A stretch of DNA of 32,000 bases from Pseudodesulfovibrio mercurii (GTDB lineage: Bacteria > Desulfobacterota > Desulfovibrionia > Desulfovibrionales > Desulfovibrionaceae), in NCBI RefSeq assembly GCF_000189295.2, contig NC_016803.1, positions 2,430,001 through 2,462,000 on the forward strand, written 5' to 3'. The position numbers and the translations under genes were made by a program. The notes beneath the pieces are model-generated. The model was not told the origin of the DNA, made no database searches, and saw nothing but the letters and a program-made list of their open reading frames with translations. Each line of letters starts with the position of its first letter. Position 1 is the first letter of the stretch. Of this stretch, positions 12,074 through 27,921 are shown piece after piece.

Positions 12074-12562
12074 ATGACTGAAGACAGCGTCGTTGACCTC
12101 ACCCCTGTGAAGACTCCGGAACAATTGTTGAAGGAAGAAGTGGGGCTTTATCTGAAGATTGTCCGGGAGACTCAGGGCAAGCCTTTGCGGTGGGTGGCCC
12201 AGAAGTTGGGGGTCTCCAACTCGTTCATATCCCAGATCGAAAAGGGGGACGCTTCGATTCCACTGGATCGGGTACTGGACTTCTCCCTTGCCTATGATCT
12301 TCCTGTGCCGGAGTTCGTTCGAATCGTTCTCGTCACCATGCACAATGACACATATCGAGCGCTGATGAGCATACTGGAGAATGACCCGGAAATGGCTAAT
12401 GCCGCCAACCGTTGCCACACGATTGCAAATCCCAAAGAACGAGCCAAGCGGCGCAAAGTTCTCAACCCTGGGCTGAGTTCAAAATCGCTTCAACGAATGC
12501 GGGAATTCATTTTGGAAAACCAAAAGCCGACGTATGGAAAACCGGTGGCAGGTGACTCGTGA
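12074..12562 (+). CDS. XRE-family HTH regulator (C-protein-like position upstream of a MTase)
   Basis: 162 aa. The HTH reads PLRWVAQKLGVSNSFISQIEKGDASIPLDRVLDF. Its stop overlaps the MTase GTG start (GTGA). Confidence 0.75.
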   Translation: MTEDSVVDLTPVKTPEQLLKEEVGLYLKIVRETQGKPLRWVAQKLGVSNSFISQIEKGDASIPLDRVLDFSLAYDLPVPEFVRIVLVTMHNDTYRALMSILENDPEMANAANRCHTIANPKERAKRRKVLNPGLSSKSLQRMREFILENQKPTYGKPVAGDS

Positions 12563-13287
12563 TTGATCTACGGAAACAAGACCACCTGGGGGTAACCTCG
12601 TCGTCCGATGACGGCGACATCCACAACGATGACGCGTTCCTTTTTTTGGAGAATTGTCCTTCCCACCGGTACGAGGCCATAATCACGGACCCGCCTTTCG
12701 AGATCGGTATCGCTGGCAAGGATTGGGATTGCAAAAAGCTTCGGACCGACGTTCTAGCCTACCAATTCTATCGCGTTCTGAAACCTGGCGGCAATGTCTT
12801 TGTATTCTGCTCGGATTTTCAATTCGGCGATTGGTATCGGGAGCTTTCCCGCTATTTTACCAAGTTGCGCAAGTATGCTTGGTGCAAACCGGATTCGCGA
12901 AGCACCAACAAGGGGATGTTTCAGGAGAGCTTCGAACTCGGGCTGCATGTGTGCTCAGAAAATTCATATTTCGACAAGGAAGGCCGCTATAAAAATTATG
13001 TGGTCGCTGGAAAAACATCAGGGAATGAACGGATGATGCCTGACCCCGATGAGGAATGGTCAACCAAGAAGGGCGAAAAGACCCTTCACCCAACGCAAAA
13101 AAAATTGTCGGTAATCGAAACGCTGGTTACCGCATTGAGCAAAGAAGGCGACACCATTTTTGATCCCTTCGCAGGCACCGGAACGCTCGGGGTCGCAGCC
13201 AAAAATTTGGGTAGAAAATTCGAGATGGTCGAGTACGGCTTCCGAAACCACATCGCTGCATGGGACAGGATTTTAGGGGAAGAGTAA
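12559..13287 (+). CDS. beta-class N6-adenine/N4-cytosine DNA methyltransferase (N6_N4_Mtase type), no adjacent endonuclease
   Basis: 242 aa. Motif IV is ITDPPF (aa 42-47) and the AdoMet motif I FDPFAGTGT lies near the C-terminus, i.e. the IV-then-I order of the beta class. Confidence 0.8.
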   Translation: MIDLRKQDHLGVTSSSDDGDIHNDDAFLFLENCPSHRYEAIITDPPFEIGIAGKDWDCKKLRTDVLAYQFYRVLKPGGNVFVFCSDFQFGDWYRELSRYFTKLRKYAWCKPDSRSTNKGMFQESFELGLHVCSENSYFDKEGRYKNYVVAGKTSGNERMMPDPDEEWSTKKGEKTLHPTQKKLSVIETLVTALSKEGDTIFDPFAGTGTLGVAAKNLGRKFEMVEYGFRNHIAAWDRILGEE

Positions 13288-13309: not shown

Positions 13310-14068
13310 TTAATATTCGAGACGAAGCTCGACTGCCCTATTCAACTTCATCCTAAGATGTTCCCATTTTGGGACGACTCGGGACAACAGGCGATAAAAC
13401 GCTGCCGAGTGGTTCCTGACGCGCAAATGGCAAAGTTCGTGGAAAATCACGTACTCGATGCAATCCTTCGGCGCTGCGACAAGCTCAGGGTTCAGGATGA
13501 TCGTACCGCTATTGGTACAGCTTCCCCAACGTTTTCGCATCCGAAGCATTCGCCACTCCGGAACGGTTTTCACGCCCATCCCGGAAGTTCTCTCCAGGCA
13601 CGATCCCACCAGGGAATGGAAAATCGCATCCGCCCGATCACGAAGCCACGCATCCACCAGTTTCTTGGCCACATCTGCGCCATCCTGGGCCAGGAGGGTC
13701 ACTTCCAGATGCGCTCCTTTGAGCTTGGCTGAACGTTCGTGGCCAACCAACAGCTTCAACCGATATTGCCGTCCCAGATACCTGACTTCCTCGCCGGAGA
13801 CATATCGCCTGGCCGGGATGGCCGGGGGATAAGCCGCGAATATCCTCTGCTGCTTGAGGACCCAAGCTCCCCGGCTTTTTACCTTGGCCGCTATCTCATC
13901 GACAGTTGCCGTCCGAGGCGTATCCGTGACGACGGTACCATCGGGGAAGACATGGATGGCCAAGGTCTTCCTGGTCGCTGGCCGGATGGAGTAATCGATT
14001 CTGGTGGTCCCGTAATGTACGGAACCGCGGGCTGGCAAATCAGGCAAGGTCACGTCTCTTGGCAACAA
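13310..14068 (-). CDS. YgjP/DUF45-type zinc metallopeptidase-like protein (M48-related)
   Basis: 252 aa with HELCHLRVRNHS (HExxH...H). The annotated start is TTG and overlaps the hsdR 3' end by 29 nt; an in-frame GTG at 14053 is an alternative. Confidence 0.7.
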   Translation of the reverse strand: MLPRDVTLPDLPARGSVHYGTTRIDYSIRPATRKTLAIHVFPDGTVVTDTPRTATVDEIAAKVKSRGAWVLKQQRIFAAYPPAIPARRYVSGEEVRYLGRQYRLKLLVGHERSAKLKGAHLEVTLLAQDGADVAKKLVDAWLRDRADAIFHSLVGSCLERTSGMGVKTVPEWRMLRMRKRWGSCTNSGTIILNPELVAAPKDCIEYVIFHELCHLRVRNHSAAFYRLLSRVVPKWEHLRMKLNRAVELRLEY

Positions 14069-17000
14069 GAATCAATTTATCGATGACAGCATCTATCACT
14101 TCGCCGGGAAATGTCACACCGGATGATTCCGAAGCGTCATACAAAACGTCTTCAATATCGTTCTTCATTTCGTTGACAATATCAATATTGTCGCTCCAAT
14201 CCCTGATTTTCCTGGATGTTACGGCGTCGTCTATGGATATCGCCATCTGGGGCAAGGAAGCTTCGGCGATCTGCCCCTCCAGCATTTCCCCCAGGATTCC
14301 GAAGTAAACGGCGGCTTCGTCCTTGCCCTTGAGGGACGGCGGCAGGTTGCCACGTTCCCCCTGTTGCAAGTCATCCAGCAGTCCCCGCATCTTGCCGAGA
14401 TATTCGGCATCGGAAAGCCGGTGCGCACGATGGCTGCTGATGGTTTCGTTGATGATTTCCGACAGACGCTTGAAGAGGACCGGGTCCTCGTCCATTCGGA
14501 CGGTGATCGTTTTCTTCACCCGGGCCGCGATGTGGTCGGCCTTGGCGGCATCCCCCTGGATCAGCTCCAACTGTTGCTCGAAGGCGTCCACGGCAAAGAT
14601 ATCCACCGGGGCGACCACCTCCTGCACGGCATCCGCTCCGATGTGCTTGCTGACCATGTTCTTGAGCTGCTGCTCGTAGGCCGAGTAATCCACGGCCTCG
14701 CCAAACCGACGCTTGACGGCGTTGCGAAGGTTTAGGAAATCCTTCAAATCGGCCTTGTACCGGCGGATCGTCTTTTCGGGCGTATTGTCTAGAAACCGCG
14801 CGCTGCTCAGCGCCAGTTGCAGGGTGTTGGCAAAGAGGCGCAGGGCATCGTAAAACCGCTCCCGGATGTCTTCCGGCTCCAGAGCCAGTTGCATGGCCTC
14901 GATGTCCACCTTGTTCCCGACTTCCTTGAAAATCTCCCAGACATTAGCGTGCCTGGCCTTAAGTTGTTCGATCTCGCCGCTGACGTCGAGAATGGTATTC
15001 TCGATGTCGGCCCGGTCGAACCCTTCCTTTTCCAGGGCGGCATAGGTGTCGATGGCTTCATTCAAGGCCCCGAAGATGCCCCGGTAATCCACAACCAAGC
15101 CGTAATCCTTGCCGTCCCACAAACGGTTCACCCGGGCGATGGCCTGAAGGATGTTGTGCTCCTTGAGGTTCTTGTCCAGGTAAAGGACGCTGTTCCGGGG
15201 CGCGTCGAACCCGGTTAAAAGCTTGTCGATGACGATCAGGATTTCGGGGTCGTCATTGTGGTTGAAGGCGTTGATGATGCTTTCGAGATACTGCTTCTCG
15301 TTGCCATACCGGCGCATCATGTCGTTCCAGAACACCTGCACCTCGGGTATCTTGAATTCATCGGTGGAGGTGTTGCCCTCTCGGCTGTCGGGGGAAGACA
15401 TGACCACGGCCACGGAGACTTCGTCCTGTTCCTCGAAACACCGAAGGTAGGCCAGAGCCGCCGGGCGGCTGGCAACCGCGAACTGGGCTTTCTTGCCGGT
15501 TCCCTTGCAAAACTGCTTGAAATGCTGGGCGATGTCATAAGCGACTTCGGCAATCCGCGACTCGGCGGAAAAGAGCTGCTCGGCCTGCCTGAACTTCTTT
15601 TTGAGGTCGCGTTTCTGCTCGGGAGTCAGCCCTTCGGTAATACGATCAAACCACTTGTCCAGTTCGGCATCGTCCCCGTGCAGTTCGCTCATGCGGCCTT
15701 CGTACCTGAGCGGGGCCACGGCCCGATCCTGGACAGCCTGGTTCATGGTGTACTTGTGGATGAAGCCGCCGAACTGGTCGGCCGTGCTCTTCTCTTTCTT
15801 CAGGAGTGGAGTACCCGTGAAGCCGATATAACAGGCGTTGGGGAAGACCACGCGCATCTTGGCATGGCTCTGGCCGTATTGGCTGCGATGGCTTTCGTCC
15901 ACCAGCACGAAAATGTTCCGGTCCTCGTCCTTGGTGCGCTTGTTGGCCACGGTCTCGAACTTATCGATGATGGTGGTGACGATGGAGGCGCGTTCCCCGG
16001 CAATGAGCTTGAGCAGGTGTTCCCCGGTCCGGGCTTGGACCACGTCCTTGCCGCACGCCTTGAAGGTCTTGGAAATCTGGTTGTCCAGGTCGATGCGGTC
16101 GGTGACGATGACCACCTTGGGATTCTTGATGCGGGGGTCGAGCGCCAGGGCCTTGGCGAGCATGACCATGGTCAGGGACTTGCCCGATCCCGTGGTGTGC
16201 CAGATGACCCCGCCCCGGCGGCGGCTGTCGCCCTTGACGTCGGTGACCCGATCCACCGTGGCCTTGACCGCGAAATATTGCTGGTAGCGGGCGATTTTCT
16301 TGATGCGGCTGTCGTAGATGATGAAACCGTATATGAGTTCCAGGAGCCGCTCCGGGCGCAGGAGGGAATGCAGGGTCTTGTCTTGCGGCGTGGGGGTGCG
16401 ATGCCCGGAAGTGAGGATACGTGTCAGGGCTTCCCGCTGTTCGTCCGTGGCCTCGGCCATGAGCCGGAACCGTTGCGCTTCGGCCAAGGGTGCGTTGACG
16501 ATGGCGTCCAGGGCTTCGTTTTGGCCGTCAGCGTCCTCTTCCTTCCAGATCGACCAGAACTTCGCATCCGTGTCCGTGGTGGCGTACATGGCCCGATTCT
16601 GGCTGATTGAAAGCAATATCTGGCTGTAGATGTACAACTCCGGGATTTCCGTGACCCGCTGGTTGCGCAGGTGCTGGCTGATGCCTTCCTTGATGGCCCC
16701 GCGCTGGTCGGGCCGCTTGCACTCGATGATGGCCACGGGAATGCCGTTGACGAACAGCACGATGTCCGGCCGGCGCACGGCATCGGAATGGCGCCGCTCG
16801 AACTCGAATTCGTCGCACATGTGGTAGACGTTGTTTTCCGGGTGTTCCCAATCGATATATTTCAGGGAATGGCTTTTCACGGACCCGTCGATGGTCTGTT
16901 CCAGGCTGATGCCCAGGGTGAGCAGGTCATAGACCTGTTCGCTGGTGGCGATCAGACTGTCAAACGGCACCTGGGCGATTTCCCGAACGGCACGCGCGAT

Positions 17001-17219
17001 ATTGGCATCCGAAAACTCGTGCCTCTGCCCCTTGAAGGTGATGGAATTCATCTCCCGCAACCGGGCTTCCAACACGTCCAGCAGGACCGGCATGGACTTG
17101 CGTCCCCCACGCATGGCCAGGGCCTTGATGGGCGGAACATATTCGTAACCGAGCTGTTCCAGCAAGATCAGGGCAGGGGCGTGAGATGCGGTGTATTCCT
17201 TGAAATCGATGCTATTCAT
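14040..17219 (-). CDS. hsdR: type I restriction enzyme, R (helicase-nuclease) subunit
   Basis: 1059 aa. Motifs: TGSGKSLTM (Walker A), VLVDESHRSQ (DEAH box variant), GFTGTP, LTGFDAP. The N-terminal nuclease region includes PDIVLFVNGIPVAIIECK. Confidence 0.92.
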   Translation of the reverse strand: MNSIDFKEYTASHAPALILLEQLGYEYVPPIKALAMRGGRKSMPVLLDVLEARLREMNSITFKGQRHEFSDANIARAVREIAQVPFDSLIATSEQVYDLLTLGISLEQTIDGSVKSHSLKYIDWEHPENNVYHMCDEFEFERRHSDAVRRPDIVLFVNGIPVAIIECKRPDQRGAIKEGISQHLRNQRVTEIPELYIYSQILLSISQNRAMYATTDTDAKFWSIWKEEDADGQNEALDAIVNAPLAEAQRFRLMAEATDEQREALTRILTSGHRTPTPQDKTLHSLLRPERLLELIYGFIIYDSRIKKIARYQQYFAVKATVDRVTDVKGDSRRRGGVIWHTTGSGKSLTMVMLAKALALDPRIKNPKVVIVTDRIDLDNQISKTFKACGKDVVQARTGEHLLKLIAGERASIVTTIIDKFETVANKRTKDEDRNIFVLVDESHRSQYGQSHAKMRVVFPNACYIGFTGTPLLKKEKSTADQFGGFIHKYTMNQAVQDRAVAPLRYEGRMSELHGDDAELDKWFDRITEGLTPEQKRDLKKKFRQAEQLFSAESRIAEVAYDIAQHFKQFCKGTGKKAQFAVASRPAALAYLRCFEEQDEVSVAVVMSSPDSREGNTSTDEFKIPEVQVFWNDMMRRYGNEKQYLESIINAFNHNDDPEILIVIDKLLTGFDAPRNSVLYLDKNLKEHNILQAIARVNRLWDGKDYGLVVDYRGIFGALNEAIDTYAALEKEGFDRADIENTILDVSGEIEQLKARHANVWEIFKEVGNKVDIEAMQLALEPEDIRERFYDALRLFANTLQLALSSARFLDNTPEKTIRRYKADLKDFLNLRNAVKRRFGEAVDYSAYEQQLKNMVSKHIGADAVQEVVAPVDIFAVDAFEQQLELIQGDAAKADHIAARVKKTITVRMDEDPVLFKRLSEIINETISSHRAHRLSDAEYLGKMRGLLDDLQQGERGNLPPSLKGKDEAAVYFGILGEMLEGQIAEASLPQMAISIDDAVTSRKIRDWSDNIDIVNEMKNDIEDVLYDASESSGVTFPGEVIDAVIDKLILVAKRRDLA

Positions 17220-17229
17220 TGGTGATCTC

Positions 17230-18702
17230 TCAAGGTTTCGTACACAACGCGTCTATGGTTATCAAATATGCAGGGCTAAACGATTCGAACCCCCATTTTG
17301 GCGGTTCAATTTTCCCGGTGGCAAATTCCCCACACAATTCAACCAAAGGGACTTTAGACTCTACGCCTAACGCCACCTTCATTCTTTCAAAATAAGCCGT
17401 AGATTGGGATCGCGCAAAGACTTCAAAGGGCGCACTCCTGTACCCTATATATAGCAACGAAATAGGGTACCACAGATGTCCCTCTTCTCTGCCGTGAAGA
17501 TAGCTATGCAGATATAAGAAAAAATCTGCCTGCATCAGATGGTAAAAGCTTAAGGACGGGCACATGTCGGCCCGACTTTTTAACATGTCGGCATGAATTG
17601 ATCTCCTATTCAATTCAAGGCGGGCATTTCGCACATCATTGAGCCCCCCGAGATATGGTCGATAGCGAGTGTACGACTTCATAGGGTGTTCATTGGAGCT
17701 AAGCCGACCGACGAAATAGAAATCCTGTACCAATTCGGGAACCACTTCAAAGCGTTCTTCCTTCAAGGCAATGGCAACGGCGCATAAGAACAACTCATGA
17801 AGAAAAAATCGGTAATTGTCGGCAGCAATTTCCACCCATTGATGCCTTCCGTCATCGGGCCACTGGGTAAACGGATAAAGCCTTTCAATGAACCGACGAA
17901 GAGTCTCTCCAGCCTGCTGAGCAGGGACATATCGAATTAAGGTTGCGAAAAATTCAACCAATTCGTTTTTGGGTTCTTCCAGCATCTCGATGCTCCGCAC
18001 CAAGCGATCGTCCAGTTCCCCATCACCTTCAGGCTCAACCCGAAAACGCTCAAGGTTCTCGATAACCGTATCGAAATAGTCCCTGCAGGCCCCAAGAGCA
18101 TTTGCTTTCCCAGATTGAAGCGCCGTCATGGCAGCTCGTTGCTTCGAGGTACTTCCGAGAGTGATTTCTTCGTCACTAAGAATATACGCAGGCGGTTTTC
18201 CCAATTCCGGCTTTTTAAAAACCGGCTTGTTGAAGATCGCCCGTAGCAACTGTTCAAATCCCTTCTCAAACAAATCAGGGGTGGACATATCGATATAACT
18301 TCTACCAGAAAGAAATATCGGGCAGCACGCGTGGCCCTGTTCATCCCGTTCCATTATAATCGGGATATATCTTTGATCCTTGCTTGCGGGATCTGTTTGA
18401 CCGTAAATCTCCGGGGTGATGATAAGCGTTTCCGTTCCAACCCCGCCTTTGCGGCTATCGGCTTTCTCCGCATAGGCTTTGTCACAGAGCATAAGGACCT
18501 TGGAAATATTAGCGTCCGCCCTCATCTGCTCCATGTATTTGTTGACGTCCGCACCTTCTACAAGGTCCCATTTATCCAGCACAACATCGACGCCCATCTC
18601 GACAAGCCGCTCCGCAAGAGCAACGACTTGTGATTCGTAATCGGGGGTTGTCCAGCTATAGGAAATAAACACTTTGGGGACGGAATTTTCGATATTGCTC
18701 AT
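17230..18702 (-). CDS. TIR-like (SEFIR/TIR_2-type) N-terminal domain fused to an unrecognised ~330-aa helical C-terminal domain
   Basis: 490 aa. The N-terminus KVFISYSW..D..QVVALAERLVEMGVDVVLDKWDL..GADVNKYMEQ...KVLMLCD..Y..KADSRKGGVGTE matches the bacterial TIR-like pattern as I recall it. I could not assign residues ~170-490. The stop is 10 bp before the hsdR ATG. Confidence 0.65.
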   Translation of the reverse strand: MSNIENSVPKVFISYSWTTPDYESQVVALAERLVEMGVDVVLDKWDLVEGADVNKYMEQMRADANISKVLMLCDKAYAEKADSRKGGVGTETLIITPEIYGQTDPASKDQRYIPIIMERDEQGHACCPIFLSGRSYIDMSTPDLFEKGFEQLLRAIFNKPVFKKPELGKPPAYILSDEEITLGSTSKQRAAMTALQSGKANALGACRDYFDTVIENLERFRVEPEGDGELDDRLVRSIEMLEEPKNELVEFFATLIRYVPAQQAGETLRRFIERLYPFTQWPDDGRHQWVEIAADNYRFFLHELFLCAVAIALKEERFEVVPELVQDFYFVGRLSSNEHPMKSYTRYRPYLGGLNDVRNARLELNRRSIHADMLKSRADMCPSLSFYHLMQADFFLYLHSYLHGREEGHLWYPISLLYIGYRSAPFEVFARSQSTAYFERMKVALGVESKVPLVELCGEFATGKIEPPKWGFESFSPAYLITIDALCTKP

Positions 18703-18759
18703 GCTTGCACCGTATTGTTATAAACGAGGCCGGGAAGGAGGCCCTCCCGGCCATTCATT
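18703..18759 (-). other. GC hairpin between the 104-aa gene and the TIR-like gene
   Basis: Minus strand: GGCCGGGA-GGGCCTCCT-TCCCGGCC (8-bp stem) followed by TCGTTTATAA. The T tract is weak, so it could be a partial terminator or a processing/stability element. Confidence 0.35.
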
Positions 18760-19074
18760 CTATCGTTCTCCACAGGCCGGGTTATATTTCGCTCGAATAG
18801 CCTGTTCGATTTCTTTACGCCCGGCTTGCTGCTTGTTCGGGGTGTAGTGAGGGGCACATCCCAATATCCCCCGGCTGTGACGGCTCCAACACCCAGCACG
18901 ATCGTGAGTTTCGACACGAGACTTAAGTCCTTTCGATTCTCCAACATCCAGAACTGTCCATTTCTCGGTCGCATCTTTGCGCGTCAGGATCGTATATACC
19001 CCCGAGCGGTCTTCTAGATCATCAGTCGAGGTGTATGGTCCCTCCGCTGGGTAGCCTGCAATAGTTATAGACAT
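18760..19074 (-). CDS. small GIY-YIG-like protein (tentative)
   Basis: 104 aa. SGVYTIL...WTVLDVGES..LKSRVETHDR...KEIEQAIRAKYNP follows the GIY...YIG...R...E...N spacing. An AAGGGA RBS lies 5 nt upstream of the ATG. Confidence 0.4.
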   Translation of the reverse strand: MSITIAGYPAEGPYTSTDDLEDRSGVYTILTRKDATEKWTVLDVGESKGLKSRVETHDRAGCWSRHSRGILGCAPHYTPNKQQAGRKEIEQAIRAKYNPACGER

Positions 19075-19272
19075 GTTTTTCCCTTAAACAGATGAATGAG
19101 CCGTCTTGAACTATACCGGACCATTATGTATGCTCCGCGCACGCTTATGGCGGAGGTCCGATGAACCTGCAACGGCTCGTGTTCGAGCAGGTTGACCTCA
19201 AGGGCGGTCTGATGGTTCCAGCATCAGGCCGCTTTTCTTGTGGACTTCAATCATTTCCCTTCTCCTAGCCTG

Positions 19273-19500
19273 CTACCCTTTGGGCGGGTATGGGTCGTTG
19301 CCGTAGCTGTTTTTTTCACGGATTCTTCCATCCTTTCCGTGAATGCTGACCTCAAGACCTTCCCGTTTCCCCTGGTCAATGGCTCGTTCCCGAGCTTCGG
19401 CCTGGGTTTCGGCTTTGAAGGAAGCGCGCTTTGCGCCGCCTTTCTTGCCTTGCCAGCCACCATCAGGATGGGGCGTGACATGCATGTCTTTACCGCTCAT
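19273..19500 (-). CDS. DUF2188-family small protein
   Basis: HVTPHPDGGWQGKKGGAKRASFKAETQAEARERAI...EVSIHGKDGRIREKNSYGNDP fits the DUF2188 pattern. An AGGAGGTG RBS lies 6 nt before the ATG at 19500, so the GTG at 19509 falls inside the RBS. Confidence 0.7.
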   Translation of the reverse strand: MSGKDMHVTPHPDGGWQGKKGGAKRASFKAETQAEARERAIDQGKREGLEVSIHGKDGRIREKNSYGNDPYPPKG

Positions 19501-19549
19501 TCGTATCACCTCCTTTGGTGCTCATTTCCCGGTTGCCCGGATGCGAAAA

Positions 19550-20374
19550 TTACAATTTCTTTGCCGCCCAGTATGCCGCCACCTTATCGATGATGGCATG
19601 GGCTACCTTGTCCATGTGCTTGCCTTTCGAGTAGTCCGCCGGGGCCACATAATGAACCCGGCCTTCGCTCCTCAGTTGCTCGGCAAGCTCCTTCGAAGTC
19701 TTCGGTTTATAGACAGCGATGGAGTGTCCCCCCTGCGCCTTGACAAGCCGCATACACGGGACATCCGTCGCCCCATCGCCGATGAAAATCATATTGGTGA
19801 ACGGCACTTCCCGCTGATCGGACTCGATATACTGGTTGATCTTCTTGTTGTCGCAGATATCCCGAACCCCTTTGTTAATCCGAAACAGGAACTGCGTCTT
19901 GGTCGTATAGTTGACGGCAAGCCCTGGGGCCTCGGCGACGCCATGCTGGTCGTACATGAACGACGAAGCGAACACATCGGTAAATTTGTTGGCAATGCTC
20001 GTTCCCAAAAGCATTTCCCGTATGCCGGAGGAGATGATGTAATGTTGGGGAATCAGCCCTTTTTCTTTGGCGTAGTCGTCAACTCGGTCAAACCATCCCG
20101 AGACCCCGGGAAACATCTCGATTCTCTTGGCGTATTGTTTGAAGTCCTGCCGCGTGACCCTCATGTCGTTTTCTTTGGCCTTTCGAAGCATCAGATACAT
20201 GTAGGCAAGAATTTCATCTGCCTGCTGATCCTTGGCGCGCCTTTTCACCTCATTCCAGAACGTTTTACTGGTCAGCTTGAGTTTCGGGATGAAGTCGTAT
20301 TCCTGCATATTCCCGGGGGCAAGCGTGCCGTCGAAGTCGTAGACAAATGCAATTCTCTGTTTGCGAAAGCTCAT
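19550..20374 (-). CDS. HAD-superfamily hydrolase/phosphatase
   Basis: 274 aa. Motif I is FVYDFDGTL (D13, D15), motif II IISSG, and motif IV FIGDGATDVPCM. Confidence 0.75.
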   Translation of the reverse strand: MSFRKQRIAFVYDFDGTLAPGNMQEYDFIPKLKLTSKTFWNEVKRRAKDQQADEILAYMYLMLRKAKENDMRVTRQDFKQYAKRIEMFPGVSGWFDRVDDYAKEKGLIPQHYIISSGIREMLLGTSIANKFTDVFASSFMYDQHGVAEAPGLAVNYTTKTQFLFRINKGVRDICDNKKINQYIESDQREVPFTNMIFIGDGATDVPCMRLVKAQGGHSIAVYKPKTSKELAEQLRSEGRVHYVAPADYSKGKHMDKVAHAIIDKVAAYWAAKKL

Positions 20375-20418
20375 GCGGCCCCCTTCAGAATTGTTTTTAG
20401 ATTTTTTCTAGACTTCAA

Positions 20419-20447
20419 AATATACTCTCTCCGGTCCCCGAAGCCAA
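20419..20447 (-). promoter_or_regulatory. sigma70-like promoter for the HAD gene
   Basis: Minus strand: -35 TTGGCT, 17-nt spacer, -10 TATATT. It lies in the 130-bp AT-rich gap after hsdS. Confidence 0.4.
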
Positions 20448-20503
20448 GCCTTCACGCCGCGTGCTCGCAACTATCTTTTATAGTTAATTTTAATTTGCAC
20501 GCG

Positions 20504-21721
20504 TTATGATTTTACTCGCACTTTTCCGGTCAATAATTGCTGCATGAGGCCCTTTTTCTGTTCCTTGAGGGCGGCGAGCTGGTTGCGGTGCTCGTCTATT
20601 TCCGCGACGGCGGCATTGAGGACTTTGGCGATGGCCTCTTGTTCCCTGGGTGGTGGGCACGGGACGTTGATCTTGAAAAAATCCTTCTTGTTCAGATTCA
20701 AAAGACCGTCGGAACGGGCTCCGCTTGTGATGTACCGCTTCAATTCCCTGGCGTGGTAATCGGCGATGAAGAAATGTTCATAGAAATCGGCCGAGACTTG
20801 ATCGGACTTGGGGCGGAAACTGATAAAGACGTTCGGGACGGAAATCTCGTCCTGATCGCGCAAAAGGTAGGCGCAGCCGCATTGGTATTTCTTCGAGTTG
20901 CCCTTGTTGTAGGCAAACTCGCCTTTCCGCAAATGGGTGTAGTTGGCATATTGCCGACCGGCGATGTCCTTGCCCCATTTTTCGCGCTGGGAGACAAAAC
21001 CGATTCCGGCGGAAATGCTGTAGGGGGGGATATCCTTGTCCCCAACGGTATCTGCGACCGGTTCGAACAAAGTGCCCAAGGGAACTTCCTTCCACGCTTC
21101 CCCGGCAAATTCCCCGAACCGAACCTTGCCCGTCAGAAGTCGCTGCATGAGACCCGTTTTCCGTCGCTCCTTGGCCTTGATGAGGGCCTCGGCCTTCTCG
21201 ATGGCGCGGTCCCAGGTGGACAAGATGGTGGCAATGGCCTTTTGTTCTTGTTCTTTGGGAAAAACGAACAAGCAGTTTCGTATATCTGCCAAGGACAGAT
21301 TAGGACGCGCAGAATCTGACTGGATACCCAAAAGCATCCTAACCGTACTTGGAAGTTGGAGATACAGTGAGAAAAAGCGGACATTATAGCCTTTTTTCAA
21401 TCTCAACAAACAAACGGCCTGATTGATGTTCGCAGGGACACCGTTGTTCTCATATATACAACTACGGCCAATAGAAGCTCCCACAATATTTATGAGAATA
21501 TCTCCATCAGCCAAGCGACTGTTCTTCATCTTTTCGCCAAACTCGTCCGGCAAGAACTTTGGCCTAGAAATATCCAAAAAGCCGTCCCTCACATTTTCGC
21601 TTGTGACGAACAAAATCCCATTCTCTTGGTACTCGAAGCCTTGCCACTTCGGGGAGGCTCCCTTGGTAATCTTATCCGCTATCTCCACACCTTTTGCTTT
21701 CTGCCACCCTTCAGGAATCAT
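20504..21721 (-). CDS. hsdS: type I R-M specificity subunit (two target-recognition domains)
   Basis: 405 aa. The conserved spacer region is duplicated (KTGLMQRLLTGKVR and KKGLMQQLLTGKVRV), as is the EQ.AIA motif (EQEQKAIATIL, REQEAIAKVL). Confidence 0.9.
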   Translation of the reverse strand: MIPEGWQKAKGVEIADKITKGASPKWQGFEYQENGILFVTSENVRDGFLDISRPKFLPDEFGEKMKNSRLADGDILINIVGASIGRSCIYENNGVPANINQAVCLLRLKKGYNVRFFSLYLQLPSTVRMLLGIQSDSARPNLSLADIRNCLFVFPKEQEQKAIATILSTWDRAIEKAEALIKAKERRKTGLMQRLLTGKVRFGEFAGEAWKEVPLGTLFEPVADTVGDKDIPPYSISAGIGFVSQREKWGKDIAGRQYANYTHLRKGEFAYNKGNSKKYQCGCAYLLRDQDEISVPNVFISFRPKSDQVSADFYEHFFIADYHARELKRYITSGARSDGLLNLNKKDFFKINVPCPPPREQEAIAKVLNAAVAEIDEHRNQLAALKEQKKGLMQQLLTGKVRVKS

Positions 21722-21993
21722 TCCCCACCATCCTTCTTCGCCCCAAGCGCCTTCTTCTCCGCAGCCTTCACGCGCCGGGCGACCTTCGCCAGGTCCTCAT
21801 CCGGCACGGGCAGTTCCTCGGGCATGGTTCCGCCCAGCTCCTTGATGGTCTGGCGGACCTTCTTGCCGACCTCGAAATGGGTCTGGTTGGCCGTTTGTTT
21901 GCCCCGGAGATTCTCTCGCCGGAGCTTCTCCTCGGTCTGCGTGGCTCGGAACAGGTTGGCAGCGAGCTCGGTGATATTTTTTTCAACCATCAT
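21718..21993 (-). CDS. DinD C-terminal-like small protein (91 aa)
   Basis: TQTEEKLRRENLRGKQTANQTHFEVGKKVRQTIKELGGTMPEELP resembles only the C-terminal third of DinD/Bro-type proteins. It has ATGA overlaps with both neighbouring genes. Confidence 0.55.
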   Translation of the reverse strand: MMVEKNITELAANLFRATQTEEKLRRENLRGKQTANQTHFEVGKKVRQTIKELGGTMPEELPVPDEDLAKVARRVKAAEKKALGAKKDGGE

Positions 21994-23015
21994 TCCCCAC
22001 CTTCCTTCTTTGCCTCGATCGCCTTCACCGCCTTGTCAAAGTCCGATTCGATACGCTGGGTCGCGTTGAACTTCTCGTACTCGGCACGGGCCTTGGCATC
22101 GGCCTGCTTGCGGGAGATGGAGCCGTAGCCTTCCAGCACCTTGTACTCGTTGAATTCCAGGAAACGGTTCACGCTGTCGGCAAAGGCCCTCATGGTGAAC
22201 GTGGTGCGGCTTTCGATGATCCGCTCAATGTAATCGAAAAAGCTGGATACCGTCCGTTCCAGTTGCTTGATCTCGTCCTCGGCCAGATAATTCTTCCCGA
22301 CCTTGGTGTCCGACAACAGAACCCGGCCATCCGGGGCGTTCTTGTAGGTTTGCAAACCCATCCTCGGCTTGTCGGCGTCGGCCCGTTGATGGATCAGCTC
22401 GCTTGAAGTCTGCCCGGTGATGGCAAAGTGAAACTTGTCCTGCACATGGGCATAAAACAGATGCGCTTCCTCGGAATTCTTGTCGTAATCCTCGCTGCAC
22501 TCGGCAAAGATGTCGGTGATCTGTTGGTAAATGCGCCGCTCGCTGGCCCGGATCGACCGGACCCGCTCCAACAATTCCCGGAAATAGTCCTTGCCGAAAT
22601 AGCGGCCATTCTTGAGCCGCTCGTCGTCCAGCACGAACCCCTTGACGATGAACTCCCTGAGCCGTTCGGTGGCCCAGATACGGAACTGGGTGGCCTTGGA
22701 CGAGTTCACCCGGTAACCGACGGAGATGATGGCATCCAAATTGTAGTATTTTGTCTTGTAATTCTTGCCGTCTGCGGCAGTTGTTTCCAAAACGGAAACA
22801 ACTGAATCCTCGGCCAATTCTCCGCTTTCAAATATGTTGGCAAGATGCTTGGAAACGGCCGGGACACCGACTCCGAATAGCTCGGCGATCCGCTTTTGCG
22901 GCAGCCAGATATTCTCGTTGTGCAGGAAGACCTCAACGGCCACCTTGCCGCCCGGGGCGGTATACAGCAGGAATTCCGTGGTCTGATCCATGGGGGTCAG
23001 GCTTTTTTCACTCAT
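21990..23015 (-). CDS. RhuM-family protein
   Basis: 341 aa. The hallmarks are WLPQKRIAELFGV...HLANIFESGEL, YYNLDAIISVGYRVNSSKATQFRIWATERLREFIVKGFVLDDERLKNG. It has an ATGA overlap with hsdM. Confidence 0.85.
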   Translation of the reverse strand: MSEKSLTPMDQTTEFLLYTAPGGKVAVEVFLHNENIWLPQKRIAELFGVGVPAVSKHLANIFESGELAEDSVVSVLETTAADGKNYKTKYYNLDAIISVGYRVNSSKATQFRIWATERLREFIVKGFVLDDERLKNGRYFGKDYFRELLERVRSIRASERRIYQQITDIFAECSEDYDKNSEEAHLFYAHVQDKFHFAITGQTSSELIHQRADADKPRMGLQTYKNAPDGRVLLSDTKVGKNYLAEDEIKQLERTVSSFFDYIERIIESRTTFTMRAFADSVNRFLEFNEYKVLEGYGSISRKQADAKARAEYEKFNATQRIESDFDKAVKAIEAKKEGGE

Positions 23016-24520
23016 CGCAGCACCCCCAGCTCTTCCAGGTATCCGGCCATTTCCTTGCGGACTTCGACCAACTCCTTTTCCAGTTCCTCGATTTCGCCCT
23101 GCACCTTGGCGATGTCCACTTCTTCCTCTTCCTCGAAGGTGTCCACATAGCGGGGGATGTTCAGGTTGAAATCGTTCTCCTTGAGTTCATCGAACCCGGC
23201 CACATAGGCGTACTTGTCCACGAACTCGCGGGCCTTGTACGTGTCCACGATCTTCCGGACATTCTCGGGACGCAGCTTGTTCTGATTCTTGGCGTCGGCG
23301 TATTCCCGGCTGGCGTCGATGAACAGGACATCCTTGTCGGGCCGGTTGCGCTTGAACACCAAGATGGCCGCCGGGATGCCCGTGCCAAAGAACAGGTTCG
23401 CGGGCAGGCCGATGACCGCGTCCAGAAGGTTTTCCTCGATGAGTTGCTGCCGGATCTTGCCTTCCGCGCCACCCCGGAAAAGAACACCGTGCGGCACGAC
23501 CACGCCGACCCGCCCGGATTCCAGAGTGGTGGTCTCGATCATGTGCGAGATGAAAGCGTAATCCGCCTTGGACTTGGGCGGCAGGCCGCGGTGGAACCGA
23601 TTATGCGGATCGCTCTGGGCCGACTTGTAGCCCCACTTGTCGAGGGAGAAGGGCGGATTGGCCACGACCACCTCGAACTTCATGGTGGTGTCGTCCTCGA
23701 TCAGCTTGGGTTCACGCAGGGTGTCGCCCCATTCGACCCTGGCCCGGTCCATGCCGTGCAGAAACATGTTCATCTTGGCGAGCGCCCAGGTCTCTCCGTT
23801 GATCTCCTGCCCGTACAGGGAAAAATCCTCGGACGTCCAGCGAACCCGATTGCCGCACTTGATGAGCAACGAGCCCGAACCGCAGGCGGGATCGCAGATG
23901 CGCTCGCCCGGCTGGGGGGCGACCAGTTCCGCGATCAGCTCCGAGACCTCCGGCGGCGTGTAGAATTCCCCGGCCTTCTTGCCCGCGCCGGCGGCGAAGT
24001 TGGCGATGAGGTATTCATAGGCATTGCCGATGACATCCAGGTTGCCCACCCGCGACGGGCGCAGGTCCAGGCGAGGATCATTGAGGTCCTCCAGAAACTT
24101 CTTCAGACGACGGTTACGGTCCTTGGTCTTGCCGAGATTCGCCTCGGAATTGTAATCGATATTGCGGAAGACACCCTGCAACTTGGCACGGTTCGCGTCT
24201 TCAATCTTCTCAAAGGTGGTGTTGATGACCTCGCCCACATTGGTGGCGTTGCGCTGGTCGTAAAGGTCATAGAAGGTGCACCCTTCCGGCATGACGAAAC
24301 GCTCCCTGGCCAGACGGCGTCCGATGCGCTCCTTGTCACCCTTGAACTGCTGGCTCAACTCGTCATACCGCTCCCGGTAAACGTCCGAGAGATACTTCAC
24401 GAAAAGCATCGCCAGGATATAATCCTTGTACTGGCTGGCGTTGAGGATTCCCCGGAAGGTGTCGCACGCCTTGAAAAGGATATCATTGATCTCTTTCTGG
24501 TTCACTTTGGTGGTGGTCAT
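23012..24520 (-). CDS. hsdM: type I R-M DNA methyltransferase subunit
   Basis: 502 aa. HsdM_N-like N-terminus (YKDYILAMLFVKYLSD), AdoMet motif DPACGSGSLL, and catalytic VVANPPF. Confidence 0.92.
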   Translation of the reverse strand: MTTTKVNQKEINDILFKACDTFRGILNASQYKDYILAMLFVKYLSDVYRERYDELSQQFKGDKERIGRRLARERFVMPEGCTFYDLYDQRNATNVGEVINTTFEKIEDANRAKLQGVFRNIDYNSEANLGKTKDRNRRLKKFLEDLNDPRLDLRPSRVGNLDVIGNAYEYLIANFAAGAGKKAGEFYTPPEVSELIAELVAPQPGERICDPACGSGSLLIKCGNRVRWTSEDFSLYGQEINGETWALAKMNMFLHGMDRARVEWGDTLREPKLIEDDTTMKFEVVVANPPFSLDKWGYKSAQSDPHNRFHRGLPPKSKADYAFISHMIETTTLESGRVGVVVPHGVLFRGGAEGKIRQQLIEENLLDAVIGLPANLFFGTGIPAAILVFKRNRPDKDVLFIDASREYADAKNQNKLRPENVRKIVDTYKAREFVDKYAYVAGFDELKENDFNLNIPRYVDTFEEEEEVDIAKVQGEIEELEKELVEVRKEMAGYLEELGVLR

Positions 24521-24530
24521 ATATTCTCCG

Positions 24531-25151
24531 TTATTTTTTCTCTTGCGATGCGGCGTCCAATATCTCGGACAACAACAATTCCCGTTGCTCCACGATCCGT
24601 TCCGTCAAAATTTTTTCTTGCAAACCACACTGGTAGACCTTGGCTATCAGCGCTTGCCTTTCGAGAGACGGCACCGGAACCGGAAGCGCCTCCAACGTCT
24701 TTCGGGTGATATGCGGCAAGGCCGTCCCGGCCGCGCACTGCCCATAATATCGCTGGGCCTGCTTGCCGTTCAGGAACCAGGCCAGATAATCCGGGCGAAC
24801 CAACGCGGGGTTGGCCTTGATAATGAAAAAATGCGGTGCGGCCACGGCTTTTTCAAGCGGCTTGTCGACCAGCGCTCCGAAAAAACGCATCCCGCGGTTT
24901 ACGAAAAGGATATCCCCTTCCTCCAGAAATGTCGGGCGGCGGCGCCCAGTCGGTACGACTTTGGGCAACCGCTTCTCGTTCACGCCCAGAACAGGGTCCA
25001 CATTCTTGAGCTGGACCACGGATATCGTACCTTCCGGATCGTGTTCAATCCTGCCCCGGAACGGATGCCCGGCGAACAATTTCGCCACGCGCTTCAAGGG
25101 AGCCGATTGGCATTTTGAATGCACCAAGCTTTTTGTTTTTTCTCGAATCAT
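24531..25151 (-). CDS. half-size (single-TRD) type I specificity subunit
   Basis: 206 aa from the ATG at 25151. PLKRVAKLFAGHPF... forms one variable domain, followed by ITRKTLEALPVPVPSLERQALIAKV and a helical tail. The upstream 56 codons of the 25319 ORF look non-coding. It ends 10 bp before hsdM. Confidence 0.6.
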   Translation of the reverse strand: MIREKTKSLVHSKCQSAPLKRVAKLFAGHPFRGRIEHDPEGTISVVQLKNVDPVLGVNEKRLPKVVPTGRRRPTFLEEGDILFVNRGMRFFGALVDKPLEKAVAAPHFFIIKANPALVRPDYLAWFLNGKQAQRYYGQCAAGTALPHITRKTLEALPVPVPSLERQALIAKVYQCGLQEKILTERIVEQRELLLSEILDAASQEKK

Positions 25152-25435
25152 GTGTTTCGATATAAGCAAGCGGGACCAGCTCGTCAAGTGCAGTTTGCAT
25201 TTTGATGCAAAAAATATTTTGGATACACTTTGGGGTACTGATCGCCGCCCCCATATCCCAGTTTGAAGCGTTAACCTATTGGCCGTTTTGCCGCGCAACA
25301 GCACTGGGGCTCCCAACATCTCTGGACTTGTTTTCCACCCCAGAAATATTTCTAACCTCTTGCCGCCCCCTCCCTAGTGAACGACCTTTTCACTTGGGCA
25401 ACGCTCTTTCCATTTTCAACTTGCACAGTCGCAAA

Positions 25436-25485
25436 GACTAACATATATATTAGTCAAAACGATTTAAGCTAATATTCATGTTAGC
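25436..25485. promoter_or_regulatory. two operator-like palindromes upstream of / overlapping the hipB-like start
   Basis: GACTAACATATATATTAGTC (25436-25455) is a 20-bp palindrome with 2 mismatches. GCTAA-N8-TTAGC lies at 25468-25485. Confidence 0.45.
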
Positions 25486-25840
25486 AAGCGAGGTGCGCAT
25501 GGGAAATACATCGCTCGCAAGCAAGGCGTTGTCCCCCGATGCTGCGGAGACGTTGAAACAACTGGGTGCGAACATCAAGGAAGCACGTGTGCGTCGAGGG
25601 ATGACGCAGGTCGAGCTGGCCACACGGGCATCGACCAGTCATGCCGCCCTGGGGCGGCTTGAACGCGGCGAACCGTCGGTGGGCATCGGCATCCTGGTGC
25701 AGGTCCTAGACGTGCTGGGGCTGGCCGCAGGGCTTGGCCAAGTGGCCGATCCGGACATGGACGACGTCGGGAAGTCTCTCCAACAGTTGAAAAGCCCAAA
25801 GCGAGTCCGCACCAAGAAGCGTGACGACCTTGATTTCTAG
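25478..25840 (+). CDS. hipB: XRE-family HTH antitoxin (HipB-like)
   Basis: The HTH reads RRGMTQVELATRASTSHAALGRLERGEPSVGIGILVQVL. An alternative start at the ATG at 25499 has a GAGGTG just upstream. It ends 8 nt before hipA. Confidence 0.75.
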   Translation: MLASEVRMGNTSLASKALSPDAAETLKQLGANIKEARVRRGMTQVELATRASTSHAALGRLERGEPSVGIGILVQVLDVLGLAAGLGQVADPDMDDVGKSLQQLKSPKRVRTKKRDDLDF

Positions 25841-25848
25841 GAGGCCGC

Positions 25849-27099
25849 ATGCCCACGGACAAAACCTACGTCTATATCCATCTTGGCGGCGAATTCGTCC
25901 CGGCGGGACTGCTGACCATGCACCAGGACGGCCGGGAGGTGGTCTCCGCCTTCGCCTATGGTCGGCGTTACCTGGAACGAAGGGATGCCGCACCCGTTGA
26001 TCCGCTTCAGTTGCCGCTGGGGCAGGCCGAATATCATGCCGGAGGCATGTTCCGGGCCTTCCAGGACGCCAGCCCGGACGGATGGGGCCGCCACCTACTG
26101 GATCGGGCTGCGGAACGGGACGGGGTTGTCCCCTCGGAATTCGACTATCTGACTGTCCTGAACCAGGAGGACCGCATCGGCGCGCTCGCTTTCGGGCCGG
26201 ATCTGAATGGCCCGCGACCGGCGACGCCTGTCTGGCGGCCCGAGGAAATCCCCGGCGACCGCCTTGACCTGGCCGCCATGCTCCGGGACGTGGATGCGGT
26301 CCTCAATCACGAGGCCTTGCCCGCCGACCAACGGCGCTTTCTGATTCGCGGCTCGTCCGTAGGCGGCGCACAGCCCAAGGCGGCCGTGGAGTACGAGGGC
26401 AGGTCCTGGATCGCCAAATTCTCGCGGGAGCTGGAACAGTGGCCAACCTGCCGCATCGAGTTGGCGGCCATGCGGCTGGCCGCGAAATGCGGCATCCGGG
26501 TTCCCGAATGCCTGGTGGTGGACGTGGGCGGACGGGATGTATTCCTGGCCGCCCGGTTCGACCGGGGCGGAAACCCGCCCATGCGCCATCACTTCCTGTC
26601 AGCCATGACGCTCACCGGGGCCGACGACATGGCGAACGGAACCTACGGCGACATCGCCTTGGCCTTGCGCCGTTTCGGGGTGGCGGGCCACCTCAAGGCC
26701 GACCTTGAGGAGCTGTTCCGCCGCATGGTCTTCAACATCCTGTGCAACAACTGGGACGACCACCTCAAGAACCACGGCTTCCTCTACGACACCGCAAGCG
26801 GCAAATGGCGGCTCTCACCCGCCTACGACATCGTGCCGCAACCCCAGCGCGACGGCGACGACGCCAGCCGCCTGACCCTGGGCATCGGCAAACAGGGCCG
26901 GGTTGCTACGCTCGACAACGCGTTGTCACGATGTGCTGATTTCGATCTCGATTTGCCCAAGGCCCGGGAAATCGCCCTGGGCATGGCCGTATTGGTGCGC
27001 GAAAACTGGCAGGGAGAGAATGAGCGGGCAGGCGTGCCGGAAGCGAAAATACGGTTGATCGAGGAGGCGTACCGGGTTGCCCTTTTGGAAGGGGGATAA
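25849..27099 (+). CDS. hipA: HipA-family serine/threonine kinase toxin
   Basis: 416 aa. Motifs: SVGGAQPKA, NNWDDHLKNHGFLY, LSPAYDIVP. Confidence 0.85.
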   Translation: MPTDKTYVYIHLGGEFVPAGLLTMHQDGREVVSAFAYGRRYLERRDAAPVDPLQLPLGQAEYHAGGMFRAFQDASPDGWGRHLLDRAAERDGVVPSEFDYLTVLNQEDRIGALAFGPDLNGPRPATPVWRPEEIPGDRLDLAAMLRDVDAVLNHEALPADQRRFLIRGSSVGGAQPKAAVEYEGRSWIAKFSRELEQWPTCRIELAAMRLAAKCGIRVPECLVVDVGGRDVFLAARFDRGGNPPMRHHFLSAMTLTGADDMANGTYGDIALALRRFGVAGHLKADLEELFRRMVFNILCNNWDDHLKNHGFLYDTASGKWRLSPAYDIVPQPQRDGDDASRLTLGIGKQGRVATLDNALSRCADFDLDLPKAREIALGMAVLVRENWQGENERAGVPEAKIRLIEEAYRVALLEGG

Positions 27100-27204
27100 T
27101 TCAGCCCTTCGCTTTTCTCGAACCAACAACGTGATCACGCCATTCCTCGGGGACTCAAGCGCCTCGCACGTAAACAAGTCGTTCCCGTCTCGGCCCGGGC
27201 AAAA

Positions 27205-27921
27205 TCAATTTGAATACTTGATGCTGTAATCGTTCAGCATCCTGGCAAGCCGGGGAAAGTTCTCTTTTTTCCATTCCATGCACAAAAAGTATTTCCCCAA
27301 GGCGTCCTTATAATACCGCCGCCGTCCGTTGGCATCAAAAACCTTGAAGGGATCTGTCGTCAAAACCGGATGCCCCAAACCCAATACTTTTCGACAAAAG
27401 GCATGGTCCTGCAAAAGGCCAATATCCTTAGGTGAAAGTTTTTGAACCAATATGCCCATGACAAGAAACAAATAATCTTTACTTGTTTCATTGCCCAAGG
27501 CCGTTGGCAACTTTGTTCCCTTTATCTCAACAAAAGATTTTATTCTGCCTTTTCTGTAAATAGCGTGATTGACCTTGGAAACAGTTTCTTCATCTTCATT
27601 ATCATACTTCCCATGGCATTCTTTACACAAAAATGCACATGTTTCTGATATCGGATAATGTGACACCTCTATCAGATGAACCATTTCTTCTATTTCGATA
27701 GAATATTCGGAACCTACTTTTTCAGAACGCTCCAAACATTCTTTTATGATATCATTTCTTTTTCTGGTCATTAGATGAGCGGATTGCAACGATCTTTTTT
27801 TCCCGCAACAATCACAAACGGCATTTTTCTTATATTGCCGGGTAGTTTCCTTGATATTATTGCGTACCTTGGGACCCAAGAAACACACGAAGTCGTCATG
27901 AGAAATGGTGCAGGTGGCCAT
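27205..27921 (-). CDS. AT-rich hypothetical protein with HNH/His-Me-finger-like Cys/His pattern
   Basis: 238 aa. It has CDCCGKKRSLQSAHL ... FLCKECHGKYD, and the C-terminal ~120 aa are unassigned. By eye (not computed) this is clearly the most AT-rich coding stretch in the window. Confidence 0.4.
   Translation of the reverse strand: MATCTISHDDFVCFLGPKVRNNIKETTRQYKKNAVCDCCGKKRSLQSAHLMTRKRNDIIKECLERSEKVGSEYSIEIEEMVHLIEVSHYPISETCAFLCKECHGKYDNEDEETVSKVNHAIYRKGRIKSFVEIKGTKLPTALGNETSKDYLFLVMGILVQKLSPKDIGLLQDHAFCRKVLGLGHPVLTTDPFKVFDANGRRRYYKDALGKYFLCMEWKKENFPRLARMLNDYSIKYSN

Follow-up and report, generated by a model that had tools for sequence, protein, structure and literature searches.

A type I restriction-modification operon of Pseudodesulfovibrio mercurii with a probable cargo slot between hsdS and hsdR holding three separable modules

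The window analysed here is a stretch of 32,000 nucleotides (nt) from Pseudodesulfovibrio mercurii (NC_016803.1, positions 2,430,001 to 2,462,000). It contains a type I restriction-modification (R-M) operon in which four genes, encoding a HAD phosphatase, a DUF2188 protein, a small protein of 104 amino acids (aa) named orf104 and a bSEFIR protein, were located between hsdS and hsdR. This gap is probably the main cargo slot (slot B) of a horizontally mobile R-M operon, with three modules (HAD, DUF2188 plus orf104, and bSEFIR) which recombine independently between related islands. The original prediction, made from the DNA letters, had regarded the gap as a hotspot with accessory defence modules inside an R-M locus, and this was borne out by loci of the same R-M family, which held different cargo in the same gap. 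The aligned loci mark slot B as a hotspot of recombination and of cargo exchange, in which no fewer than three modules vary independently; "one or two" had been proposed, which was too few, since three independently assorting units were found.

All gap genes were encoded on the minus strand together with hsdM, rhuM, orf91, hsdS and hsdR. Full-length matches to hsdM, hsdS and hsdR in Pfam and PADLOC, in one orientation and with uninterrupted open reading frames (ORFs), were obtained, as expected of a type I R-M system. The ATGA overlaps proposed earlier were exact at each of the junctions hsdM/rhuM, rhuM/orf91 and orf91/hsdS, and the gap of about 3.3 kb measured 3,284 nt from the hsdS stop to the hsdR start. 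The predicted gap content was likewise all present and co-oriented, with a HAD gene carrying the motifs DFDGTL and GDGATD, a DUF2188 gene, a spacer of 198 nt, the ORF of 104 aa, a hairpin and a TIR-like gene. The intergenic distances were 129 nt (hsdS-HAD), 40 nt (HAD-DUF2188), 198 nt (DUF2188-orf104), 57 nt (orf104-bSEFIR) and 10 nt (bSEFIR-hsdR). The operon order in this R-M family is half-hsdS, hsdM, slot A, hsdS, slot B, hsdR and YgjP/SprT peptidase. The half-hsdS was annotated as a gene of 185 aa in a related contig (L091) and was found 5' of hsdM in related loci; the peptidase followed hsdR in 13 of 15 related loci and also in the plasmid loci. The features of the operon, from its first gene to its last, are as follows.

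24531-25088, minus strand: half-hsdS-like gene with a single target recognition domain, heading the operon (PADLOC Specificity_I, 1.3e-18)
23012-24520, minus strand: hsdM, N6-adenine methyltransferase (PF02384, 4e-109)
21990-23015, minus strand: rhuM, PADLOC PDC-S05, slot A cargo (PF13310, 1.7e-100; PDC-S05, 3e-146)
21718-21993, minus strand: orf91, C-terminal remnant or module of DinD/Bro-N (PDC-S13), slot A (NCBIfam DinD, 3.7e-31; PDC-S13, 2.8e-33)
20504-21721, minus strand: hsdS (Pfam Methylase_S; PADLOC Specificity_I, 2.8e-89)
20419-20447, minus strand: promoter-like TTGGCT-17-TATATT, not significant (number of such sites as expected from shuffling)
19550-20374, minus strand: HAD-IB C1-capped phosphatase (predicted), PADLOC PDC-S34, module 1 (PDC-S34, 4e-121; Pfam PF12710, 1.8e-15)
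19273-19509, minus strand: DUF2188 protein, PADLOC PDC-S16, module 2 (PF09954, 3.5e-21; PDC-S16, 6.5e-31)
19075-19272, minus strand: conserved and probably structured leader of 198 nt between DUF2188 and orf104 (pairing and compensatory changes)
18760-19074, minus strand: orf104, minimal stand-alone protein of predicted GIY-YIG fold, module 2 (72 homologues)
18728-18752, minus strand: G+C-rich hairpin closing the DUF2188-orf104 module (11 pairs, nine of them G-C)
17230-18702, minus strand: bSEFIR, 490 aa, module 3 of slot B (PADLOC bSEFIR, 5.2e-102; Pfam SEFIR, 1.2e-16)
14040-17219, minus strand: hsdR (Pfam HSDR_N, SWI2_SNF2 and T1R_D3; PADLOC REase_I, 3e-224)
13310-14068, minus strand: YgjP/SprT-like metallopeptidase, conserved last gene of the R-M family (PF01863, 1.8e-51)

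Related hsdS/hsdR pairs, whose comparison had been suggested as a check, held other cargo in the gap, namely Kiwa, HAD alone, Abi, Fic, or Shedu with HAD. In Pseudodesulfovibrio thermohalotolerans (L092), with flanking genes of 97-98% aa identity, slot B contained HAD-DUF2188-orf104-bSEFIR, and slot A contained a full DinD/Bro-N gene replacing rhuM and orf91. A metagenome-assembled genome of Desulfovibrionaceae (L094/L095, hsdR 73% identical) carried RhuM in slot A and DUF2188-orf104-KwaA-KwaB in slot B, with neither HAD nor SEFIR, and KwaA-KwaB (Kiwa) occupied the position of bSEFIR. Only DUF2188-orf104 was present in slot B of L097 (hsdR 81%), on whose short contig slot A was not seen. In Geobacter sulfurreducens (L177), which had the same R-M family, slot A contained a Bro-N protein and slot B only HAD. 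The same solitary HAD, abutting or overlapping hsdR, was found with variable slot A cargo in L013, L014, L015, L022 and L023 (hsdR 41-46%), and HAD abutted or overlapped hsdR also in L185. Three plasmids extended this range: Abi was present in slot B, with slot A empty, in Methylobacter (H2, hsdR 63%), Fic in slot B and MazEF in slot A in Deinococcus (H3, hsdR 51%), and Shedu plus HAD in slot B and RhuM in slot A in Neotabrizicola (H5, hsdR 42%).

The composition of the cargo was also distinct. The G+C content at third codon positions (GC3) was 0.49-0.57 for DUF2188, orf104 and bSEFIR, 0.69 for HAD, and 0.79-0.82 for hsdM and hsdR. Compared with L092, the genes hsdM, HAD, hsdR and YgjP were 97-98% identical, orf104 90%, bSEFIR 85% and hsdS 67%. 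The low GC3 of the cargo and the mosaic identity to L092 thus pointed to recent and separate acquisition of the cargo. The value of 67% for hsdS between nearly identical operons (window 20504-21721 against 7366-8571 of L092) points to an exchange of the specificity subunit. In slot A, orf91 corresponded to about 80 C-terminal aa of DinD/Bro-N, covering positions 205-284 of the 288 of the NCBIfam DinD model, and it shared 97% identity with the C-terminal part of the complete gene of 291 aa in L092. This suggests that rhuM plus orf91, compared with the full L092 gene, represent a slot A cargo swap which left or reuses the C-terminal segment.

Co-occurrence across genomes was a second check suggested earlier. 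All four gap genes did occur together, in the same order, in L092, L093 and L098, but only in these loci, which are relatives of the window island with 80-99% identity. Neither bSEFIR nor orf104 was found in any of the 80 loci encoding HAD relatives, and neither HAD nor bSEFIR in any of the 82 remaining orf104 loci (85 loci minus L092, L093 and L098). DUF2188 adjoined HAD, on either side, in seven of the 80 HAD loci, and it adjoined orf104 in ten of the 85 orf104 loci, six of which had a spacer of 196-198 nt. Since co-occurrence was confined to close relatives, a functional link between HAD and the TIR/SEFIR protein was not supported.

The gene called TIR-like in the original prediction did match TIR_2 (7.6e-14), but the Pfam SEFIR match at aa 9-119 was stronger, and PADLOC placed the protein in bSEFIR. 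It thus had what defines bSEFIR, an N-terminal SEFIR domain outscoring TIR and a family model match, and strong matches to both the PADLOC and the PHROG family were obtained. Defence by bSEFIR as a single gene has been validated experimentally (Millman et al. 2022, 10.1101/2022.05.11.491447), and its homologues were reported as stand-alone NAD+-cleaving effectors and not as signal generators. The proposal that HAD acts on an ADP-ribose (ADPR)-type signal derived from TIR was not upheld, given that none of the 80 HAD loci contained bSEFIR and that bSEFIR was reported to cleave NAD+ alone. A role of HAD as ADPR-1''-phosphate phosphatase was also considered and rejected, because this activity belongs to Macro-domain proteins and HAD did not co-occur with NADase systems.

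The cargo had the same orientation as the R-M genes and was lodged between them, so that it is inherited together with R-M. It might also be transcribed together with the R-M genes. In this case immunity could be layered: R-M would cut unmodified DNA first, while bSEFIR, through NAD+ cleavage, and probably the mini-nuclease orf104 would serve as back-up or abortive-infection effectors. HAD had been placed behind a promoter-like sequence of its own, TTGGCT-17-TATATT, and the motif does exist at 20447-20419; but the scan for promoters and terminators found six promoter-like sites against 7.0 expected in shuffled sequence. Since such sites stayed at chance level, the motif gave no evidence of a promoter and no claim on transcription units rests on it. 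In the 129-nt spacer between hsdS and HAD (20375-20503), nested inverted repeats were observed, with CGCGTGC...GCACGCG around AACTAT-AAAAG-ATAGTT. This spacer was absent in most other loci, where HAD followed hsdS directly.

For the HAD protein, the PADLOC PDC-S34 model (PDLC05002) matched over residues 4-272 of 274 aa. The catalytic motifs I-IV were invariant in 24 diverse homologues, namely D13-F-D15-G-T17, S115-S116-G117, K159/K168 and G199-D200-G201...D204. The AlphaFold2 (AF2) model had a mean predicted local distance difference test (pLDDT) value of 92.3 and a helical insert at residues 28-104, by which the protein is a C1-capped HAD as modelled. A weak HAD-IB match existed in NCBIfam, under its cut-off. 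The fold matches of the model were to C1-capped HADs, the closest being cytosolic 5'-nucleotidase III and IIIB and the SerB phosphoserine phosphatase; the best-matching structures were 2jga (E = 1.1e-9), 7zeh and 4eze. A search of PDB sequences gave no relatives of HAD, orf104 or DUF2188, and no phage homologue of HAD or orf104 was found in PHROGs. The viral fold library was uninformative for HAD, giving only weak and generic HAD/5'-nucleotidase matches with template modelling (TM) scores below 0.5.

The HAD family was large. A word-index search returned more than 8,000 matches, and the family comprised 662 clusters at 50% identity (E<=1e-30), with members 50-60% identical across phyla. Among 19 long members (370-460 aa), at least 14 unrelated groups of C-terminal extensions were found, one of which was DUF5655, and this variety resembles that of effectors of conflict systems. 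The long members included P0194, P0197, P0204, P0224 and P0226; a few N-terminal HNH or resolvase fusions also occurred, which may be artefacts of gene calling.

The genomic contexts of HAD were bimodal. At least two hsd genes were co-directional with HAD in 11 of the 50 informative loci (22%), always in the same R-M family with half-hsdS and YgjP, and this rate of embedding in type I R-M would be far above chance. The embedded copies were scattered across half of the HAD tree. Outside R-M, Ham1 (the Ham1/RdgB inosine triphosphatase, ITPase) was encoded near HAD in 15 loci of Rikenellaceae/Alistipes, L025, L030, L034, L035, L038, L061, L070 and L074 among them. The order class II ribonucleotide reductase (RNR)-DUF2188-HAD was present in two alphaproteobacterial loci (L016 and L021), and HAD was solitary among housekeeping genes in Desulfoluna and one other genome. 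Scattering of the gap genes in non-defence contexts had been named as the outcome that would count against the original prediction; it was found in part, for HAD alone, most family members of which were located in non-defence contexts.

As for function, HAD might dephosphorylate small molecules, its substrates being nucleoside monophosphates or further nucleotides, perhaps in a modified form like N6-methyl-dAMP (m6dAMP); in doing so it would drain or sanitise the deoxynucleotide pool beside an N6-methyladenine (m6A)-type R-M system. It would then be neither a protein or DNA phosphatase nor a partner of SEFIR. C1-capped HADs generally act on small molecules. A nucleotide-directed role is suggested because the nearest folds were 5'-nucleotidases and because the neighbours outside R-M, Ham1 and RNR, belong to nucleotide metabolism. 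A phosphatase directed at nucleotides, possibly at modified deoxynucleoside monophosphates (dNMPs), and working alongside the m6A R-M system, is tentatively favoured from the combined comparisons, although it is less likely than not. A role as protein phosphatase reversing the action of phage kinases was rejected, since the T7-kinase paper gave no support and the C1 cap favours small-molecule substrates.

A more specific form of this idea has a precedent in two recent systems. MisB, the HAD of Metis, converts m6dAMP to m6dA, and the HAD of PUA-Cal-HAD converts dATP to dADP, both depending on N6-adenine methylation (10.1101/2025.11.05.686725; 10.64898/2026.01.15.699771). Like these, the window protein would be a C1-capped HAD phosphatase in an anti-phage setting, and it was encoded in an operon with an m6A methyltransferase. 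By this analogy the PDC-S34 protein would be a 5'-nucleotidase for methylated or modified deoxynucleotides, clearing m6dAMP or draining dNMPs released by DNA degradation, that is, a single-gene and R-M-coupled counterpart of MisB recruited from a housekeeping enzyme of pool sanitation; in this full form the proposal is unlikely.

Several observations weigh against a nucleotide-directed defence role. About 78% of the informative HAD loci lay away from R-M or recognised defence genes, and a clade of Bacteroidales HADs was found in conserved, housekeeping-like synteny with nitroreductase, Ham1/ITPase and FolE. The adjacency to Ham1 and that to RNR each came from a single lineage. The fold matches were modest (TM about 0.5-0.57, 12-17% identity), and phosphoserine phosphatases scored nearly equally. 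In the literature on PDC-S34 and on HADs of hsd operons, including the Payne supplement, no paper naming PDC-S34 and no published test of its anti-phage activity were found. As regards MisB, the window HAD belonged to Pfam PF12710/PF06888, in contrast to PF13419 for MisB, and no PF13419 match was obtained in it at E<=0.01; no MisA (calcineurin-like), MisC (a protein with three transmembrane segments) or PUA-Cal partner was present in the locus, where the neighbours of HAD were hsdS and DUF2188, and neither a metallophosphatase nor a membrane protein adjoined it. The Pfam family and the absent partners place the window HAD outside the MisB family.

The housekeeping contexts could be taken further, to an ordinary metabolic phosphatase, for example of the nucleotide pool, which is carried along as a hitch-hiker by mobile R-M operons and plays no part in defence. 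The synteny in Bacteroidales and the solitary copy in Desulfoluna and another genome would fit this, as would the lack of a PHROG match and of a defence-type sensor domain in the window HAD. It appears rather doubtful all the same, because about 22% of the informative loci were embedded in R-M, which would be expected to make up well under 1% of a genome, because the embedded copies were spread over the tree, because all other cargo seen in slot B consisted of defence or toxin genes, and because many unrelated C-terminal extensions are typical of conflict-system effectors. If HAD instead served this type I R-M family specifically, as its accessory subunit or cofactor and not as an independent defence gene, for example by regulating restriction or processing a product of HsdR action, it would be understood why the HADs embedded in R-M occur with this one family (with half-hsdS and YgjP) only, and so would its frequent position as the sole gene of the hsdS-hsdR gap, abutting or overlapping both neighbours by 1-4 nt as expected of translational coupling. 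But HAD was missing from the closest sibling R-M loci (L094/L095 and L097, hsdR 73-81% identical) and from the plasmids H2 and H3, most members of its family had no R-M nearby, and C1-capped HADs are in general small-molecule enzymes, so that an accessory subunit is improbable.

A single system of all four genes, in which HAD processes an ADP-ribose-type product derived from SEFIR/TIR, would account for their co-orientation and tight packing in the window and for the same gene order in L092, L093 and L098. Yet these three loci were close relatives of the window island, the partners were absent from the 80 HAD loci and from the 82 other orf104 loci, the position of bSEFIR was taken by Kiwa in L094 and was empty in L097, and bSEFIR functions as a single gene; such a system is very improbable. 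The reading of three separate modules, with HAD tentatively directed at nucleotides, was thus retained.

Module 2 consisted of DUF2188, the leader, orf104 and a terminator-like hairpin. DUF2188 has been tied to defence in the literature by context only. For orf104, 72 homologues of about 102 aa were found, which makes it a real conserved family. No Pfam or NCBIfam match was obtained for orf104, so no curated sequence model of GIY-YIG recognised it, and it had no PADLOC model of its own, only a weak match to PDC-S14 (3e-5, aa 22-65). The AF2 model had a pLDDT of 91.7. Its nine best PDB fold matches were all GIY-YIG domains of UvrC (match probability 1.00, E 1.5e-3 to 1.8e-2, TM 0.50-0.64), followed by PD-T4-3 and Eco29kI. 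The earlier description of the 104-aa protein as GIY-YIG-like therefore holds at the level of the predicted fold. The conserved pattern was GVY...DVGES...R...H...E; with residues assigned by motif order, Y27, H57 and E90 were invariant and R53 nearly so, the Tyr position of "YIG" corresponded to the invariant D43, and there was no invariant Asn. In 17 loci (including L102, L103, L106, L108, L114, L127 and L128), orf104 homologues separated hsdM from hsdS in another type I family, followed by PDC-S19. Others were found beside divergent regulators, a CapH-like helix-turn-helix (HTH) protein and a CapP-like peptidase (L107, L116, L138 and L139). orf104 is missing from the public annotation of L091, a JGI contig that shares 99.96% identity with positions 17937-28185 of the window; small genes such as this are easily overlooked in annotation.

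The leader of 198 nt kept its length and much of its sequence, including the invariant AGTTCAAGACGGCT, across diverged loci (L092, L094, L097 and L098). In its consensus structure 89% of the alignment cells were paired, against 25-46% when the structure was slid, and eight pairs had compensatory changes against 0-2. Covariation from about four independent sequences or lineages supported a structure of five helices, in which the G-U pairs fitted the sense strand only; the z-score of the single sequence was just -1.4. The leader is thus probably a structured RNA element, judged by its pairing pattern. No Rfam family matched the DUF2188-orf104 spacer. When the covariance model was run against 165 other loci, nothing was found beyond the seven loci in which DUF2188 precedes orf104, so the leader is lineage-restricted. 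The spacer also contained a short ORF, which was not accepted as a gene: its length was 18 aa in the window but 60 aa in L095, and the frame was not conserved. The hairpin at 18752-18728 was kept, with changes in its stem, in the diverged L094, directly before the point where the cargo differs. DUF2188, the structured leader and the mini-GIY-YIG protein may together make up a novel kind of module, either a toxin or a defence unit, that is regulated by RNA.

The R-M operon was carried by an island of 19.65 kb integrated at a tRNA-Glu gene. Three features marked it as an island: direct repeats derived from the 3' end of the tRNA, an integrase beside attL, and a change in composition, with a G+C content of 0.49-0.61 inside and 0.64-0.73 outside. 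It was bracketed by exact repeats of 29 bp at 8502-8530 and 28157-28185, and homology to two related contigs (L091 and L092) broke off exactly at 28185. Its remaining features are as follows.

8502-8530, plus strand: attL at the tRNA-Glu 3' end, one copy of the 29-bp exact direct repeat CAGGGGTTCAAACCCCCTTGGGGACGCCA
8616-9701, minus strand: tyrosine integrase adjoining attL (Pfam Phage_integrase, 1.2e-14)
28157-28185, plus strand: attR, second copy of the exact 29-bp repeat and island end, where homology to L091 and L092 ends

The R-M operon was flanked on the island by a pair of HTH protein and N6/N4 DNA methyltransferase and by a HipB/HipA toxin-antitoxin-like pair (12074-13287 and 25478-27099). 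No nuclease adjoining the HTH and methyltransferase pair was identified. In the Rfam scan of the whole window just two tRNAs were matched.

That defence genes lie embedded in type I R-M operons has been described in print before, and catalogues of candidates already list two of the three genes of the cassette. What makes this locus interesting is the candidate HAD family, the mini-GIY-YIG family and the conservation of the leader. The locus also shows cleanly, in a natural setting, how type I R-M operons serve as landing pads for the exchange of defence genes, with close relatives differing by bSEFIR or Kiwa and by the presence or absence of HAD. The widespread HAD family may link phage defence to DNA methylation and nucleotide pools, given the recent work on immunity that senses m6dAMP. 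If HAD were a mere housekeeping hitch-hiker, it would be a useful caution for predictions made by "guilt by embedding". The orf104 family is absent from current defence catalogues and recurs in two type I R-M families.

The locus can be compared with several known systems. The classic gene embedded in type I R-M is PrrC in EcoprrI. The PDC families, which are phage defence candidates, were delimited by the occurrence of their genes within BREX, DISARM and type I R-M systems, an approach called "guilt by embedding" (Payne et al., bioRxiv 10.1101/2024.01.29.577857). Like those embedded genes, the accessory genes of the window were co-directional and lay between hsd genes, and HAD, DUF2188, RhuM and the DinD-like gene matched PDC models; HAD in particular matched its PDC-S34 family model and was embedded on the same strand between hsdS and hsdR. 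Unlike them, the window locus stacked three modules in one slot, and PDC-S34 and PDC-S16 have the status of candidates. bSEFIR resembled that of Millman et al. in its length of about 490 aa and in the SEFIR domain at its N-terminus, whereas the window copy was embedded in an R-M operon. The HAD model shared a core-plus-cap architecture with SerB and with NT5C3A/B (cytosolic 5'-nucleotidase III/IIIB), the IIIB enzyme being a 7-methyl-GMP nucleotidase. The orf104 protein had a predicted fold and motif order in common with the N-terminal domain of UvrC, R.Eco29kI and PD-T4-3, but unlike these it comprised only 104 aa without a DNA-binding or partner domain, and Asp replaced the second motif Tyr.

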